Shown: in pieces, positions 5,469-57,474 of the stretch | How the letters are laid out: every line of letters starts with the position of its first letter | How positions within the stretch are numbered: the stretch's first letter is position 1 | Origin: Piedraia hortae CBS 480.64 | Taxonomy: Eukaryota | Assembly: GCA_010093745.1 (NCBI GenBank) | Contig: MU006003.1 | Coordinates: 1 to 64,000, forward strand | Direction of reading: 5' to 3' | Length of the DNA stretch: 64,000 bases | Position numbers and translations under genes: made by a program | Notes under the pieces: model-generated | The model's input: only the letters and a program-made list of their open reading frames with translations | Database searches by the model: none | What the model was told of the DNA's origin: nothing

Positions 5469-8400
5469 ATGGCACATCGCGGATGGCAAGCCATGGGCGG
5501 AGCATCAGGAAACCAGGCGGATTCGTGTCGATCGAGGACTGGAGGCCCGCCGGGACCGCCGCCGTTCGGCTACCGCAGCCCAGAGAACGCCCGAAGGGGC
5601 CCAGCAGCTGCTGATGAGGTGGCAGTGAGCAGCTCTGCACCGCACATTACTGCACAGACACCGCCTCAGGATCCGGCAGCTCCGTCATATCCTTTCCAGC
5701 CAGCGCAACACGGTCTTGCCCACCTCGCCGGCGTCAGCCATCCATCACCACAACAAGGACCCAACGCACAACGTCCTGAACCGCATCAGCAACCTCCCCC
5801 ACCTCCGCAGGGTTTGGCATTTCCAGGCATACCCCAGTCCGGCGGTCCAGCCACGCGCGAATTGGAGTTGCAGAAAGAAGAGGAAGAACGGCGTCGAATG
5901 GAGCAGGCGCAGCACGGAGGGCCTTTGCTGCATCAGCCAGTCGCAGTCGGACCTCCTCGCGCCCACGCGCCCAACGGAATCCTCAACTCTGGCGTCGCAC
6001 CACACGCGCGACCACCGGTGCCGCTCACAAGCGGCTTCACGAGCGGGCCAGTACAGGCACCCGGGCAGCTAATGGCGTACGGGCCTCCGATGGCTCCAGG
6101 CGGCAGCCAGCAGCCTATTCTGAACGATGCGCTGAGTTACTTGGACCAAGTCAAGGTGCAGTTTGCCGATCATCCAGACGTGTACAACCAATTCCTGGAC
6201 ATCATGAAGGACTTCAAGTCCGGCTCCATTGACACGCCGGGCGTCATTGGCCGTGTCTCGGCGCTTTTTGCGGGTAATCCGGCGTTGATCCAGGGCTTTA
6301 ACACCTTCCTGCCGCCCGGGTATCGCATCGAGTGCGGCACCGGCGACGACCCGAACTCGATACGTGTGACGACTCCTATGGGCACCACGGTAGCTGCCAT
6401 GCCGCAGCCGAGGCCACTGAGTCGCCAGGACGGCCGTATGCTGACGCCGCCCGCCGGTGGGCCACATTTTCTCGCATTCAGTCCCAGCTTGCGGCCCGGG
6501 CCCGGCGTGCCCGTAACTTCCAATCCACAGGGCTTCAACGCTCTCGACGCCGCCCGACAGGAGCAGCAGGCTCAGGAGCAGCGCAATGCCCTGGCCGCGG
6601 CATCGGCTGGAGCGGGAGCGGCGACGGGCATCTCTCCGCGGGCAGGGGCGGCGGGAACCTCCCCGCGTGCGGCGACTCCGAATGCCCAGGCTGGAGATGG
6701 CGGGGCAGACGGAATGGGGGCCGGTGACAGGCGCGGGCCGGTCGAATTCAACCACGCCATCAGCTACGTGAACAAAATCAAAAACCGATTTTCCACGCAG
6801 CCAGACATTTACAAGCAGTTTCTTGAGATTCTGCAAGTTTATCAGCGAGAATCAAAGCCGATTCAGGACGTTTACGGCCAAGTTACTGATTTATTCAAGA
6901 CGGCGCCTGACCTTTTGGACGACTTCAAGCAGTTCCTTCCCGAATCGGCAGCAGCGGCCCGGGAAGCCGAACACAAGGGCGACATGATCCCCATATCACA
7001 TATGCGCGGCGACGTCTCGTTCCACAGCCCCATGGTGCGCGAGGCCCATCTTGGCACCCCAAGCAACAGTCGTGGAGCTGACTTGCCGCCCGTGGGCAAC
7101 TTTGCGCCAACGTCAACTGGTAAAGACTCCAAGAAACGCAAATCTGAGCGTCAAGCGGCCGCTGAAGGCCCCGGCGGACGCTCAAATCACCCCCAGCCAG
7201 GCAAGCGTCTTAAGCAGACCCAACCGAAACCAGCCAACGATGCACCGCCGCCATCTCCCAGCCTCGTGCCGCCTCTTCCTCGACCGCTGAAGCCGCAGGA
7301 GACGGTGACTCCAACTACGGCTGACATGGCGTTCTTCGACCGAGTCAAGAAGTCGATTGGCTCCAAACACGGCATGGCCGAGTTCCTCAAGCTGTGCAAT
7401 CTCTACAGCCAGGACATCATTGACGCCCAGACTTTGGTGCACCGCGCTCGCTTTTTCATCGGTCACAACGAAGAGCTGCTGAACCATCTGTGCAACCTGG
7501 TTGCCTGCCAGCCAGAGACGGGCCCTCTAGAGCTGAAGCCGCGTGACGCGTTACAAAAGGTCAATCTCTCTCACTGCCGCGCTCTTAGTCCGAGTTACCG
7601 GCTGCTTCCCAAGAGGGAGCGGCTCAAGCTGTGCAGTGGTCGGGATGAACTCTGCAACTCGGTCCTGAACGATGAATGGGCTAGTCATCCAACGTGGGCT
7701 AGCGAAGACAGCGGTTTTGTTGCCCATCGGAAGAACACGTTTGAAGAATCGCTTCACCGTATTGAGGAGGAGCGGCACGATTACGACTTCAACATCGAGG
7801 CATGCAGCCGCACCATCCAGCTGCTCGAGCCTTTTCAGCAACAGCTCGAGAGGATGTCTGAGCAGGACAAGCTAAACTTCCGTTTGCCGCCTCGTCTGGG
7901 TGGGCAGAGCAATGCCATCTACCAGCGCATCATCAAGAAGATATACGGCCCTGAGAGGGGCACCAAAATGATTGAAGAGCTCTACAACTGGCCTTATTCG
8001 GTCATCCCCGTGCTGGTTCATCGCATGAAGGAGCGGCTTGAAACCTGGAAGACTTCCCAGCGCGAGTGGGAAAAAGTGTGGCGGGACCAGACGGAGCGCG
8101 TCTTCTATCGCTCTCTGGACCACCAGGCTGGCTACCACGTCCGCAACGACAAGCGCCTGTTCCAGACCAAGTCGCTGCAGGCCGATATGTCGGTCAAGCT
8201 CGAAGAAATGAAGCGCATGAGCAACCACAATCCGGACATTATGAAGCAGCCACAGATGACGATTCGTGTGGACGACATGGACGTTGTATACGATACTTTG
8301 GTCTTGCTACATCAGTTCAGCGTGCAGAACGTTGAGTCCGATCAACCCAGACTCGGCATGTTCATCAAGGAGTTTGTCACTCTCTTCTTCAATCTCAACA

Positions 8401-9874
8401 GCGATGTCGTGCGCAAGAGGCTGGAACAGCGGAACTCTGGCACACCGGCAGCGGATAACGTAACTGATGAGCTCGCATCTGTTAGTGACGACGGTTCGTC
8501 GAAAGGCCGCAACCGTTCGGGCAACCTGCTGCGCTCGGCCCTTGATCCTGCTCGCGGTAGGCGGACGGCTCGGCGCGAAAGCAACAACGCTTCACGTAGC
8601 CGCGGTAACACCCCGGAGGCGTCGTCAAAAGCTGCCGACGAAGACGTTGCGATGGAAAACGCCGGGAATGAGACGGGAGATAAGCCCTTTCGTCGAACCT
8701 TCCAGCACGTTCCTGCGAAGGATAGCTCAACCGGGAAGAACGTCGAGTCCAACGATGCGCGTGAATCTGGTCGTTTATGGGCGGGCCTGAATTTCTACAC
8801 CTTCTTGCGCGTGTTCCTCATACTGTACGAGCGCCTGCAACGGGTAAAGAACGCAGAGCCAAAGGTGGCTGAGATCATCCGTCGGGCAATGAAGATGAAG
8901 GCCTCAATCAAGCTCGGCATCGCAGACAAGCCCCCGACCGACTTCTTCCCCCACGTAGAGTCGTATCCGAGCGATCCACACTTCTACTATAACCAGCTTC
9001 TGCAAAAACTGGAAGCTGTGAGTCTTGGGGAAGAGGACTTTTCACCCAACGTCGAGGATATTTTGCGACGCTACTATCTACAGACGGGATACTACTTTTA
9101 TGGCTACGATAAGCTGGGCAACGTGGCCTGCAAATATGCCCAGAACGCGGCCAGCGGTGAAGGTAAAGACCGAAGCACCGAAGTATACCAACTATTCAAG
9201 AGATCCAAGACCAGGGACCCCGTGGCTGGATCTCAACGCTTCGACTACAAGAAGGCAGTAGGGAAGCTTGTCAAGGACGGCGAAATTTACCGCATCGACT
9301 GGGTAGGTCTTTTGATGCTGCTATGGGGAGAGTTTCTAACCTCTGATAGGACCCCAATGCTCACGAAGTGCGCTTCTACCTTATCAAAGCCGATGATACT
9401 GATGAAGACCAGCCTGATCAGCTGGATGCCTTCAATGATTGGGCCGTTAACTTCTGTAGCGCTGAGCCCAGCACAGCAGAACTGCCCAACCCTGCCTATC
9501 TCGAGCGTAGCCTGCGTACCCTCAACGCGGCGACTACAGAAGGCAATAGCATGTCGAGGGTGGAAGCTCGCATGCAGAACATTGAGACGCCGGAAAGGCT
9601 GCAAGTCAGAATCACGCTTGGCTACAAGATGTTCTTTGTGCCTGGATCAAGGGAGTATTTCACACAGCCGTGGAAGGAACGCGTGGGGACAAAGGAAGAT
9701 GTGGAACAGGCTGAGCAGGTTAAAAAGTCAAGGGACGAGGAGATGCAGAATGTGATAAATAAACTGGAGGACAACCTCCCCGAAAAGGAGAGGGAAGAAG
9801 GCGATGCTTTTCTGAAGAGCTTCGTCGAGACAGGACCGGTGAGGGACCAGGAGGCTATGGACACGACAGAGTAA
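5469..9874 (+). CDS. SIN3: Sin3 histone deacetylase corepressor scaffold; intron ~9303-9350
   Basis: PAH1 (DALSYLDQVK), PAH2 (VEFNHAISYVNKIK), PAH3 and HID (PSYRLLPK...CSGRDELCNSVLNDEWASHPTWASEDSGF). The C-terminal exon lies in ORF 9368-9874. Confidence 0.92.
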
Positions 9875-50123: not shown

Positions 50124-50632
50124 TTGTGGGTGTATCATGGTGATATGTAACTAGTATCCTTGGCCCCCTGTCAGCACTGGGAACCGCTTCGTTAGATCTG
50201 TTGTCTGTTAGTCGTGGCCTCGAGATAGGATGATTCATGCAGAGTGGAAGAACTGATCAGAAGTCCGTTAAGATCATCGCAACGCAAGCGTTGCTGACAT
50301 AAGAGGTACCAGAATTAAATGTATATAGTTGGGTGTCATCATGAAGAGGAAAGAAGCGGGTGAACATACCTCGAACTGGACAGCATGAGGCCATATCATT
50401 ATGCCGCCTCATGAATAGTCGGGGTTACCCATTTCCACTTCAGTCTGCCGTGCCGAGCAGCCAGCACTGGAAGTGGACTGTGTCCGTGTGTGTTGAAAGC
50501 GTGGGCGACAACAGTCCTCTCACAGGTGCAGAGAACGGAATATCTCCGCTCTTTGCCAAGACTTTCAATTCCGCACTGCACCGCGACCAACGTCGAACCG
50601 CACCGTAACAGCATCGTAACAGTACTGCAACC

Positions 50633-53325: not shown

Positions 53326-56300
53326 ATGGATTCATACGCCGAGTTGATACCTCCCACGGCAGTAACCCATGCCGTAGCCCTACCGTTTACGAGTTCAGGC
53401 ACCAAAAACCTCGTGGTTGCCAAGACGTCGTTGCTGCAGGTGTTTGAAATAAATGAGCCGGCAAAAGACGACCAGCCCCGACTGTCGTTCGTTGGCGAAT
53501 ATCCCCTATATGGAACCGTGGCGGCACTGGCCGCGGTTGAACTTCCTCACACACAGTCAGGCGGTGCTGCTCTGTTGGTGGCCACCCGAAATGCGAAGCT
53601 CTCGCTGGTCGAGTGGAGCCCGCGGGAAAATCGAATCAGTACAATAAGCATCCACTATTACGAGAACGAATACAAAGCGCGTCCATTTATCTCTGACTGG
53701 AAGGATGAGAACCCCGTTCTGACGGTTGATCCCAATTCTCGTTGCGCAGCTCTGGCGTTCGGAGGAAGTGCAATGGCTCTCATTCCTTTTCGTCAACAGG
53801 ATGAAGATCTGCCACAGGAGCTGGACTTGTCTTTGCAACAAACGAATACTAATGGCGACCCGGCCAGACAAGCGCCCTACGAGAAATCGTTTGTGATTCC
53901 GCTGATGCGGCTGGACCCGCGTCTGGTGCGTCCGATTGACCTGGCCTTCTTGCACGAGTACCGCGAGCCGACGCTGGGCGTGCTTTCCGGTACTCAACAG
54001 CCCTCTTCGGGCCTTCTTGCCGTCCGCAAGGATTGCTTGTCATATGTCGCCATCACATTGGATATTGAAGAGGCTGCCATGACGACCCTGATCGTTGTTA
54101 ATGGTCTGCCGTCTGACCTCTGGAAGGTTGTTCCCTTGCCTCTTCCAGCTGGCGGGGCTCTCCTTGTCGGGGCCAATGAACTATTGCATGTCAATCAGTC
54201 TGCCAAAGTCAGTGCAACCGCGGTGAATGAATTCGCTGAAGACGTTAGTGACTTTCCAATGCTGGACCAGAGTTATCTCAACATGAAGCTCGAAGGATGT
54301 GAAATCGGTGTATCGCTAGACCCCGACACAGGTGACAGGCTACTGACTCTACACGACGGCTCTTTGGCGGTCATCAAGTTCAAGATTACGAATGGTCTGG
54401 TTGCTGGGCTATCAGTAACACCTCTGGGACAGGTGCAACAGATTCCTTACCTGGCTTCACCTTCTTGCGTAGTCGCCATGGATAAGCAGAGGTTGTTCTT
54501 TGGTAGCGCTGAAGGCCCCTCGATCCTTGCGAGCTGGTCCAGAGACGAGTCGCGGATCAGTAGGAAGAGGAGTCATGCACAGATGGTGCAACAAGAGTCT
54601 TTGACGGTGACGGACGACGCACTAGATGACCTAGACGACGATGATATCTATGCAACTGCGGCCGAAGCTCCCAAAGTCAATCAGGCAGCTAACAGTCAAG
54701 ATGCTTTGCACGAGGACACGGGATACAGGTTTGAAAAAATTGACGAGCTGTTGTCGCTCGGGCCCATCAATAATATTTGCTTTGGGCGGTCGCCGCGAGT
54801 GGGCGATGATCGGCTGGAGATGGTCGCTGCTGTTGGACGGGGCCCCAGTAGTAAACTTGCATTCATGGGTCGACAAGTTGTTCCTGACCCTATCCAGCTC
54901 ATGCCATGGGTCAATGTTATGAATATCTGGTCCATAAACGTTGCGTCCACCAAGAACAAGCCTTGGAGAACGCTAATGGTCTATGACGGTGAAACGACGA
55001 AAGTGTACGATACAACCGCGGAAGACTATCCAGAACGCACTGGTACCGACTTTGAGCATGAAGGCGAAACTATGGCAGTTGGCACGCTGAATGACGGCAA
55101 ACTAGTTGTGCAGTGCAGACCCCACGAAATTAGAACGTATGACCGAGATCTTGGCCTCTCTCAGATAGTACCGATGGAGGACAGTGTGACCGGGGAAGAG
55201 TTAAGCATTGTTAATACGTCCTTTTGCGATCCTTACTTACTGGTATTGAGGGTGGACGGCAGCTTGCAGGTCCTACAGGTCCAGAAGAACGGAGAGGTTG
55301 ACCCGTTGGAGGCCACCGGGGCTCTGGCTGAAAAGCACTGGATGTGTGGCTGCCTGTATGCAGGTGTGACTTTTGCAGATGGGGCACCGACGGCCTTTTT
55401 GATCAATGACAGTGGCGCCCTTGTTGTCCTTCGCCTGCCGAGCACGGAGCCTGTGTACTATATACCGCAAATGGCATTTCTGCTACCATTTCTGATTCCG
55501 GGCGCACCAAATCGGCGTGGTGAAAAGGCAAAGTTGACGGACATCCTGGTCGCCGACTTGGGGCCTGAGCATTCGACAAAGGCATATCTCATTGTGAAGG
55601 ATTCGCAGGATGACCTGACTGTGTACGAGCCTTACTACTATGATCCCACAGGCCGCGCTGGTCATGGCGAGTTTGACCATCTGATGTTCCGGAAGGTACA
55701 CTTCCCATACATACCGTTTGATGACAGGGACTATGGGGACGAAGACAGCAGACCAGAGACTATGCGCGCCATCAAAGTTGGGAACCGCCATATGGTGTAT
55801 CTGCCAAGCTTATCGCCCAGTCTCATTGTCAAGGAGGCTATCGGCCCACCTAAAGCTATCGGACTACGGGTAGAGAAGCCTACCAAGACTATGCAGCCAT
55901 ATGATGACGATGGAAACTTTTTCTTGGTCTACCACGATGGAACCTGTGGCAAGTATGGCCCACAAGAGAATGCCACGTTTGAAACAGGATGGAGCATCAG
56001 CTTAATGTCTCTGCCTGCGGCGCAGCCCGAGGAGATACGGCATCTGGCGTTCTACGAGCCAAGAGAAGTCTACGTGATCGCCACTTGTCGTAATGAAGAC
56101 TTTTTATTCTCAGCAGATGACAAGAGACATGAAACGAATGATGGTAAGTCGCACAAGAAGGCCCTTCAATGCATCACGAGCATATACGTCTCTTCTTTAC
56201 TATGTGGAGCGACGTCTATAGTTGATGCTATATCGACCCTGTGAATTCTATTCAGCCATGCTGCCATTTCCATGTGGCCTGTGCTTTATATAACAGGAAC

Positions 56301-57474
56301 AAATCTCTCCTATTGGACTGTGCTAACGTAAGTAGATATCTCTATGCGACCGCAAATATCAAGGTACACGATACACTTGCTCTCTGCCAAAACGAACGCC
56401 ATCATTGAATCTATGCCATGGCCGTATTCACAAGAGACGTTCACTGGCCTCAAAGTAATGCCACTTGAAGTCTCTGAGCTGACACGAAAGCAGAGACCAA
56501 TGCTTGTCATTGGCTCTGTAGCCATTCGCGGCGAGGATATGCCTGCAAAGGGAGCCGTAACCGTCATCGAAATCGTGGACGTGGTGCCACATCCAGACCA
56601 ACCTGAGTCAGGAATGCGAATGAGAATTGTTTGCCATGAAATCACTCGCGGCGCCATCACTTCCCTAGAACCCTGGCCCGGCGGTCTCATATGCACCGGC
56701 CAAGGCCTACGTTTGATGATCAGAGGACTGAGGGAAGATGGGACATGTCTCCCAGTTGCTTTTCTGGACGCTCAATGCTTTACCACGCAGTTCAAATCAC
56801 TTCCAGAAAACAAGTTGTGGCTCGCAGGTGATGCGCTGCAAGGGCTCTGGTTTGGGTGTTGGACAGAGGAGCCGTATCGTCTCAATCTTCTTGGCAAGAC
56901 TAGATGTCCCCTGGAAGTTGTGACGGCAGAGTTCCTCCCCACCGGGGAAGACTTGGACATTCTTATAATCGATCCGCAGACGAATCTGAACGTTTATCGT
57001 TGGGATCCCCATGCCCATAAGGCCGAATCAGGCATGCGGTTGATCAAGAGATGCTCGTTTCACCTCGGACACTTTCCCACCAGCATGGTACGTGTCCCCT
57101 CAACGTTGTATGGTGACAATCCTGCAACCGACTACGTACTCGTCACATTTTCTTCCGGTGCGATGGGATGCATCGCACCGATTGAGGAGGCGTCATGCCG
57201 ACCTCTTACCGCCATGGAGGTGGCAATGACGGGGGGCATACTGGACCATACTTGCGCGTTGAACCAGAGAGCCTATCGGAGCGGTGAGCCAGAAAATGCT
57301 AAGGATATGATGATTGGACGGGGCGGGGTCGTCGACGGCGAAGTACTGAAATGTCTGGGCGATCTGGGGGTCATCCGACGGAACGAAGTTCTTGGCGAGG
57401 TTGGCTTTAGCAGCACATGGGGCTTTCGAACTGCCCTTTTACGCATCACTGGTGGGGGTTTGGGATTTGTATAA
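53326..57474 (+). CDS. CFT1: CPSF160/Cft1 cleavage and polyadenylation factor; intron 56144-56335
   Basis: ELIPPTAVTH, LVVAKTSLLQVF, ISTISIHYYE, VDPNSRCA, FLHEYREPT, GEDMPAKG and LPVAFLD. The splice restores the frame (..NDD|ISMRP). Confidence 0.9.
56170..56304 (+). ncRNA. Candidate intronic H/ACA snoRNA
   Basis: Two hairpins (GCATCA/TGATGC and CCTGT/ACAGG), an H-like hinge ATATCGA at 56230 and ACA at 56299-56301. Both pockets are complementary to conserved 18S segments. Confidence 0.72.

Follow-up and report, generated by a model that had tools for sequence, protein, structure and literature searches.

A predicted two-pocket H/ACA guide snoRNA in the CFT1 intron of Piedraia hortae and related fungi

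The only intron of CFT1 in Piedraia hortae CBS 480.64 very probably encodes a real and functional box H/ACA small nucleolar RNA (snoRNA), a claim that is drawn from sequence comparison. The intron lies in the first 64,000 nucleotides (nt) of contig MU006003.1 (assembly GCA_010093745.1), a stretch that is called here the window. Working from the letters of the window alone, an original prediction had described a double-guide H/ACA snoRNA at this place. Its architecture and the conservation of its first pocket hold in related fungi, whereas the second pocket is not conserved in five of the six relatives. Overall, the explanation that accounts best for the observations, and which is considered likely, is an intron-encoded RNA of about 134 nt acting as a two-pocket guide for two uridines of the 18S ribosomal RNA (rRNA). 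Regarding the individual targets, the match of pocket 1 makes it reasonably probable that this pocket guides the formation of a pseudouridine (Psi) at position 24 of 18S, and the chances lie slightly on the side of pocket 2 guiding the uridine equivalent to yeast U808 and human Psi866 in Piedraia and in the lineage of locus L062. The two-hairpin guide reading is supported because the orthologous introns keep the hairpins, the H-like box, the ACA and the spacing between them. The features of the gene, the intron and the putative RNA are the following:

53326..57474, plus strand: host gene CFT1 (CPSF160-type subunit of the cleavage/polyadenylation factor), with exons 53326-56143 and 56336-57474 and one intron
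56144..56335, plus strand: spliceosomal intron of 192 nt, phase 1, with GTAAGT as 5' splice site, CTAAC branch site at 56323-56327 and AG as 3' splice site
56171..56304, plus strand: predicted mature box H/ACA snoRNA of about 134 nt, its 3' end set by the rule of 3 nt past the ACA and its 5' end predicted
56171..56228, plus strand: hairpin 1, with lower stem GCATCA (56171-56176) / TGATGC (56223-56228) and upper stem ACGTC (56186-56190) / GACGT (56211-56215)
56177..56185, plus strand: pocket 1, 5' guide strand CGAGCATAT, forming 9 base pairs (bp), one of them G-U, with 18S AUAUGCUUG, directly 3' of U24-C25
56216..56222, plus strand: pocket 1, 3' guide strand CTATAGT, whose first 4 nt pair (one G-U) with 18S GUAG, directly 5' of U24
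56230..56236, plus strand: H-like box ATATCGA, starting 14 nt past the upper stem of hairpin 1
56238..56297, plus strand: hairpin 2, with lower stem CCTGT (56238-56242) / ACAGG (56293-56297) and upper-stem base AGC (56254-56256) / GCT (56283-56285)
56243..56253, plus strand: pocket 2, 5' guide strand GAATTCTATTC, whose last 8 nt pair (one G-U) with 18S GAAUAGGA
56286..56292, plus strand: pocket 2, 3' guide strand TTATATA, whose first 4 nt pair with 18S AUAA, directly 5' of the target U
56299..56301, plus strand: ACA box, starting 13 nt past the upper stem of hairpin 2

When folded, the core of the intron (56171-56304) shows hairpin 1 followed by a hinge of 9 nt, then hairpin 2 and a 7-nt tail that contains the ACA. 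This arrangement appears in both the minimum free energy (MFE) and the centroid structures of the window and five relatives, and the folds of L066 and L067 agree with it. Every coordinate originally proposed for the stems of the two hairpins, the boxes and their spacings was confirmed. Those of the pocket strands were also correct, except that the second strand of pocket 1 had been given as CTAT only and reads in full CTATAGT. The two strands of pocket 1 (56177-56185 and 56216-56222) are partly self-complementary (CAUAU with AUAG), with a palindromic CUAUAG, and therefore the MFE structure closes this pocket in all seven sequences compared. The 134-nt RNA folds with a z-score of -1.98, a stability equaled by 10 of 200 shuffles; the window and five relatives give -1.98, -3.19, -0.67, -2.20, -2.23, and -0.97, respectively, and the whole 192-nt intron reaches only -0.83. 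Thermodynamics by itself would not carry the case for a snoRNA.

The nature of the host gene and of the intron is well defined. The flanking reading frames contain the RSE1/DDB1/CPSF1 propellers and the CPSF_A domain (Pfam), and the second exon is 100% identical, over a query of 378 residues, to the protein P0002, labeled 'hypothetical protein K470DRAFT_259479 [Piedraia hortae CBS 480.64]' in one source and 'Protein CFT1' in UniRef. The P0002 model joins HETND-D-ISMRPQ precisely across 56144-56335 and its first residues agree with the frame of the first exon. Since this protein spans the junction and matches the first-exon frame from its first residues, 56144-56335 can be taken as the sole intron of CFT1. 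In addition, the only public run with the region, X1 (the kind of which is guessed), contains a contig of 4788 nt that omits exactly 192 nt, bounded by GT..AG, from which it follows that the intron is removed in RNA. The intron of 192 nt proposed at this place is thus borne out by the sequence, the P0002 model and the X1 contig.

To find the same intron elsewhere, 71 CFT1 loci were fetched from metagenome contigs after a CFT1 protein alignment. The element occupies the identical intron position in nine of them (L062-L070), which represent six distinct sequences at around 45% protein identity. Of the 17 nearest loci with sequence across the site, these nine have an intron of 229-409 nt at the same codon, in all cases with the same element, while the other eight (L054-L061) have no intron. 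The affiliation of the carriers is given by their CFT1 proteins: L066 and L067 are 100 and 99.7% identical to that of Friedmanniomyces endolithicus over the final ~400 residues, the part compared; for L062 and L063 the identity is about 79%, to those of Meristemomyces and Oleoguttula; L064 and L065 reach about 80% with their top matches, the metagenome protein P0013 and the CFT1 of Cladosporium fusiforme, respectively; and L068-L070 show 72% identity to that of Vermiconidia. In this last group the element spans L068:163-309, L069:4057-4203, and L070:6398-6544. The loci without the intron share about 95% identity with the metagenome proteins P0013 and P0026; in L055, L060, and L061, the ones for which a named protein is in the top three matches, the identity to the CFT1 of C. 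fusiforme is about 90%. No copy of the element was found in the available flanks of L054-L061, up to 6 kb on each side of the site (e.g., L055:8922-8926); in these Cladosporium-like loci, the intron and the snoRNA gene are lost or moved jointly. Regarding the approximately 50 more distant loci, 14 were inspected: 12 have an uninterrupted reading frame at the site and two have a GT...AG gap of about 50 nt at the same codon (L075, ~7555-7606; L084, ~9138-9188), inside which no snoRNA-like element is found. Because these two short gaps share the codon and lack the element, the intron position may predate the snoRNA.

The same distribution was obtained with a covariance model (R1) of hairpin 1 and the hinge box, which was searched on both strands of the window and the 71 loci (764 kb). 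It recovered the window at 82.4 bits (56171-56238) and the nine loci at 65-90 bits (E <= 2.6e-14); the two remaining matches, on the antisense strand of the window (E 0.21) and in L084 (E 3.3), are weak, and none of them falls below E = 0.2. The core pattern of hairpin 1, scanned in contigs of prokaryote genomes, gave no match. Judging from the loci compared, the element is conserved in related rock and sooty-mould fungi.

Conservation is concentrated in the first hairpin. Hairpin 1 and its box take up 68 window positions, of which 44 are invariant over the seven sequences, and the mean pairwise identity of this segment is 0.78, against 0.57 in shuffled controls; the flanks of the intron stay at the level of their controls (0.36 vs. 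0.33 and 0.50 vs. 0.46), and the neighboring exons reach 0.65-0.68 vs. 0.59-0.60. Hairpin 1, with pocket 1, is invariant in 6/7 sequences. In hairpin 2, on the other hand, the sequence changes and yet all pairs of the lower stem and of the upper-stem base are standard in the seven sequences. The lower stem appears as CCUGU/ACAGG, CCUUC/GAAGG, CCUUG/CAAGG, or CUCCU/AGGAG, with U-A, C-G, or G-C as the innermost pair, and the upper-stem base as AGC/GCU, AGU/ACU, or ACG/CGU, so that the stems of hairpin 2 are kept via compensatory changes. The full-length alignment with MAFFT and RNAalifold misplaced the 5' strand of hairpin 2, as the pocket lengths differ, and for this reason the stems were tabulated sequence by sequence. 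It is important to note that they were chosen by eye or from the MFE structure, which biases the pair counts toward pairing; the independent constraint is the ACA, found 0-2 nt beyond the lower stem and followed by a 3-nt tail in all seven (the mature 3' end being set by rule). The distance from the upper stem to the H-like box (14-15 nt) and to the ACA (13-16 nt) is also maintained in 7/7. The H-like box of the window reads AUAUCG followed by A, that is, the ANANNA consensus is broken by a G at position 6 and an A stands at position 7, as had been noticed originally; this deviation turns out to be common to 6/7 sequences. The pattern A.A..[GA]A describes the box in all seven, with A1 and A3 invariant and the A at position 7 always present, and for H boxes of fungi the part of the source consulted gives position 6 as the more variable (PMC5824354). 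In summary, the comparison of CFT1 introns that had been proposed as a check gave conserved hairpins, boxes, spacing and pocket 1 and a pocket 2 that is not conserved in five relatives, and the covariation expected from it was found as compensatory changes in hairpin 2 and was missing in hairpin 1, the stems of which do not vary.

The targets were looked for in a sample of ribosomal DNA (rDNA) formed by eukaryotic contigs that contaminate prokaryote assemblies, located with the primers NS1 and NL1. Each of the two primer patterns matched at least 50 eukaryotic 18S or large subunit (LSU) contigs in assemblies of prokaryote isolates or metagenome-assembled genomes (L001-L053, L125-L175). Eukaryotic rDNA contamination of prokaryote records is thus common, because both patterns match more than 50 such contigs. 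A target was scored as contiguous pairs from the apex of the pocket, with G-U allowed and the U-N left unpaired, and chance was estimated with 3000 shuffled guides per pocket on a 4.5-kb rDNA stretch of L170. The two 18S segments given in the original prediction, GTAG-TC-AUAUGCUUG and ATAA-TA-GAAUAGGA, do exist in the eukaryotic 18S loci fetched. The best site for pocket 1 is GUAG-UC-AUAUGCUUG, with 9+4 = 13 bp around U24-C25, and the second-ranked site overall reaches 10 bp. The claimed pairing of 4+9 bp at U24 was therefore reproduced, and it is above chance, since its score was reached by 11/3000 shuffles. The site was present in 59/59 loci reaching that part, among the matches listed, although 53 of them had been selected by this very primer site (NS1); of those selected with the LSU primer, L154 and L170 are new contigs and the other four are NS1-selected contigs again. 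To our knowledge, no modification of U24 of yeast 18S is on record. The predicted duplex of pocket 1 covers 18S 20-34, including A28, which is the methylation site of snR74/U27, and overlaps by 3 nt the duplex that boxes A'/A of U3 form with 18S at nt 6-22 (PMC4340053).

The case of pocket 2 is different. In the window it pairs with AUAA-UA-GAAUAGGA (8+4 bp), a segment present in L053 and L170, so the proposed pairing of 4+8 bp at about U808 stands, and it is weak when taken from the window by itself. However, the pocket 2 target is confirmed by the guide of L062, which forms 15 bp there and has its wobble in a different place: GGAAUAA-UA-GAAUAGGA is matched with 8+7 bp, partly using the lower stem, with the G-U shifted to the adjacent pair, and only 2/3000 shuffles reach this score. 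For pocket 2 of L063, L064, L065, and L066, no convincing rRNA site was found in the scanned rDNA. That of L068-L070 complements 18S UAAA-UC-AGUUAU, with U105 as the target, a match no better than chance (996/3000 shuffles for L069) from which one may at most suspect that hairpin 2 has changed its target from one lineage to another. As for the site matched by the window and L062, yeast 18S-808 corresponds to human 866, the target of SNORA28, and to Xenopus 18S-828; in yeast, U808 normally carries no modification and is pseudouridylated upon expression of SNORA28 of X. tropicalis, which bears out the claim that this site of expansion segment 6 (ES6) is that of human Psi866 and is unmodified in Saccharomyces cerevisiae (PMC8522698).

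If the intron acts as proposed, its splicing, debranching and exonucleolytic trimming would release the RNA of about 134 nt, which would assemble with Cbf5, Nop10, Nhp2, and Gar1, and the two pockets would position two 18S uridines in the active site of Cbf5. Pocket 1 would present U24, within 18S 20-34 and adjoining both the U3 box A/A'-18S duplex and the Am28 site, and pocket 2 would present the U that corresponds to U808 in yeast and Psi866 in human.

Several observations weigh against this explanation, in whole or in part. The target segments come from contaminant rDNA contigs of other eukaryotes and not from the 18S of P. hortae, and the scan covered 18S and approximately the first 2.2 kb of 25S, so that a better site may exist in the 3' third of 25S or in the small nuclear RNAs. 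The pocket 2 site has variants among other eukaryotic loci (AAUAAUGAAAUAGGA, ..AAAAUAGGA, and ..GGAAUAGGA), the pocket 2 strands differ from those of the window in 5/7 sequences, and the score of pocket 2 in the window was reached by 149/3000 shuffles, which is weak alone. The invariant stems of hairpin 1 provide neither support nor contradiction by covariation, and a canonical ANANNA is found in L062 only (AGAUCA), the other 6/7, including the window, having G at position 6. At the RNA level, X1, a single RNA-like assembly and the only run located, has no contigs over the CFT1 intron, and no small-RNA run was located. As for the modification maps, the 20 H/ACA snoRNAs of Neurospora crassa have 18S targets at 105, 463, 996, 1509, and 1733, with U24 absent from the part of the paper available (PMC2780460); in the 18S table of Arabidopsis, the Psi rows begin at U35, and 'U24' has no match in the portion of the file at hand (PMC8351944). 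In the nanopore data of Chaetomium, position 24 has 0/1264 calls in ct18S and 0/142 in cg18S, with thin coverage of the 5' end, and positions 803 and 806 of ct18S have at most 1.5% calls, as far as the accessible sheets go (PMC12723226). For 18S, those nanopore sheets are the source of the Psi data, the pseudouridines tabulated in the same part of the paper being of the LSU only (PMC12723226). Position U806 may be taken as the equivalent of yeast 808, as the Us of this stretch lie at 803, 806, and 811 in L170 and in the C. thermophilum numbering and only U806 fits. These data argue against both pseudouridines in Chaetomium, a genus in which carriage of the CFT1-intron RNA is not established.

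The same evidence can be read in other ways. The one with most weight, though still doubtful, is that of a real snoRNA that guides via hairpin 1 only, in which the match of pocket 2 in Piedraia is due to chance and hairpin 2 serves for the assembly of the small nucleolar ribonucleoprotein (snoRNP). The frequency with which shuffles equal the window pocket 2, the divergence of this pocket in five of the seven sequences, four of them with no convincing rRNA site, and the scarce calls at Chaetomium U806 in the data available (<=1.5%; PMC12723226) would all fit a hairpin 2 of this kind. Nevertheless, it leaves aside the guide of L062, which matches the 18S site of the window pocket 2 with 8+7 bp and has its G-U in the adjacent pair, and the fact that this site is already known to be accessible to a guide, as human Psi866 (PMC8522698).

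It has also to be considered that the RNA may be a folding or processing chaperone of the pre-rRNA of H/ACA type, like snR30/U17, in which the m1/m2 motifs of the 3' hairpin loop pair with two ES6 sites, or snR10; hairpin 1 would then hold 18S nt 20-34 alongside the U3-18S duplex in early 40S assembly. This is unlikely. In its favor, the stems and part of the apical loop of hairpin 1 are invariant while hairpin 2 drifts, the predicted helix adjoins the duplex of U3 boxes A'/A with 18S at nt 6-22 (PMC4340053), and a U24 pseudouridine does not appear in the parts consulted of the N. crassa, Arabidopsis and Chaetomium data. Against this, the geometry is that of a canonical guide, in which the U-N stays unpaired where the upper stem begins and the box follows after 14 nt; none of the species with pseudouridine maps is a known carrier of this RNA, and the invariance may stem from a modest sampling depth (six lineages). 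A conserved structure that acts in cis on the splicing or expression of CFT1, with no stable trans-acting RNA, is still more improbable and would be very surprising: it would account for the constant residence in this one intron of CFT1 and for the missing RNA evidence of a stable product, X1 being the only run located, but it leaves unexplained the ACA at 13-16 nt and the H-like box at 14-15 nt in 7/7 sequences and two pockets complementary to 18S (11/3000 and 2/3000 shuffles), and eight Cladosporium-like loci do without the intron entirely. The intron-encoded two-pocket guide is thus retained as the preferred explanation. A role of hairpin 1 beyond guiding was considered on account of its frozen sequence and of the overlap of its predicted duplex with the U3 duplex that blocks the central pseudoknot. 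It is very improbable that such a lineage-specific snoRNP could help to time the release of U3 or the folding of the central pseudoknot.

Among the known systems, several resemble the CFT1-intron RNA. One of them is the vertebrate SNORA28, guide of human 18S Psi815 and Psi866, which is also a two-hairpin intronic H/ACA guide and whose 3' pocket targets the equivalent of yeast 808, as does pocket 2 of the window and L062 (PMC8522698); its other pocket is directed to yeast 759 instead of U24. This is a functional parallel, and common descent is unsupported, with no Rfam match at E <= 10. A second likeness is found in the 'H/ACA snoRNA intronic' of Pezizomycotina (Gao, Jones and Rivas, 2021), which has resided for long in an intron of one host gene, has a conserved guide in the first hairpin and a predicted small subunit (SSU) target not known to be modified, and was subjected to a similar shuffle control (PMC8216456). 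Its host, however, is a vacuolar sorting protein gene, its target is SSU-743/744 and its distribution is Pezizomycotina-wide (PMC8216456), whereas the CFT1 element is found only in Capnodiales-like CFT1 loci. The H/ACA RNAs recently described in fungi target SSU-203, SSU-743/744, and LSU-1951 in the part of that work available (PMC8216456). The yeast snR44 and its N. crassa counterpart ACA1 (18S Psi106/Psi105) are likewise intronic fungal H/ACA guides for the 5' domain of 18S (PMC2780460); their site, U105, is the one complemented at chance level by pocket 2 of L068-L070, and the pockets of the window point to other sites. Finally, snR74/U27 (box C/D, 18S Am28), with counterparts in the CD21 guide of N. 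crassa (PMC2780460) and the Am28 site of Arabidopsis (PMC8351944), pairs with the same 5'-terminal segment of 18S, from which it follows that this segment is accessible to snoRNPs, although it belongs to another class of snoRNA and directs 2'-O-methylation.

A search against Rfam, suggested along with the original prediction, gave no known family for the CFT1 intron element: window positions 56050-56450 had no match in Rfam 15 at E <= 10, and four ortholog loci gave at E <= 5 only two chance matches to long non-coding RNAs. Likewise, no description of a CFT1-intron snoRNA appeared in the portions of the literature available; the family lists of the fungal snoRNAome might contain it, though the starting set of that survey was five species from outside the Dothideomycetes. 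The CFT1-intron RNA would thus represent a previously unlisted fungal H/ACA snoRNA family, working like any two-pocket guide.

Elsewhere in the window, the sole match above the Rfam gathering threshold is the box C/D snoRNA Afu_264 (50255-50346, minus strand, 64.5 bits). It lies within an intron-like interval at ~50370-50197 (minus strand, ~175 nt), between GTATGT and CTAAC...AG, the second unusually long one.

The family is known from seven sequences, those of Piedraia, one Friedmanniomyces-matching locus and five relatives with Teratosphaeriaceae-like or Cladosporium-like closest named proteins. From a practical point of view, it suggests a rule for compact fungal genomes, in which the rare long introns are good places to search for snoRNAs. 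It also illustrates the evolution of guides, with one pocket frozen, the other possibly switching its target between close lineages and one lineage without the whole intron. If hairpin 1 did have the timing role mentioned above, 40S assembly would be tied to the expression of a 3'-end processing factor, as the RNA would be made only on CFT1 splicing. For the ribosome of these fungi, the element predicts a pseudouridine at 18S U24, beside the strand that binds U3 and forms the central pseudoknot, and a fungal counterpart of human 18S Psi866, which is absent in budding yeast.

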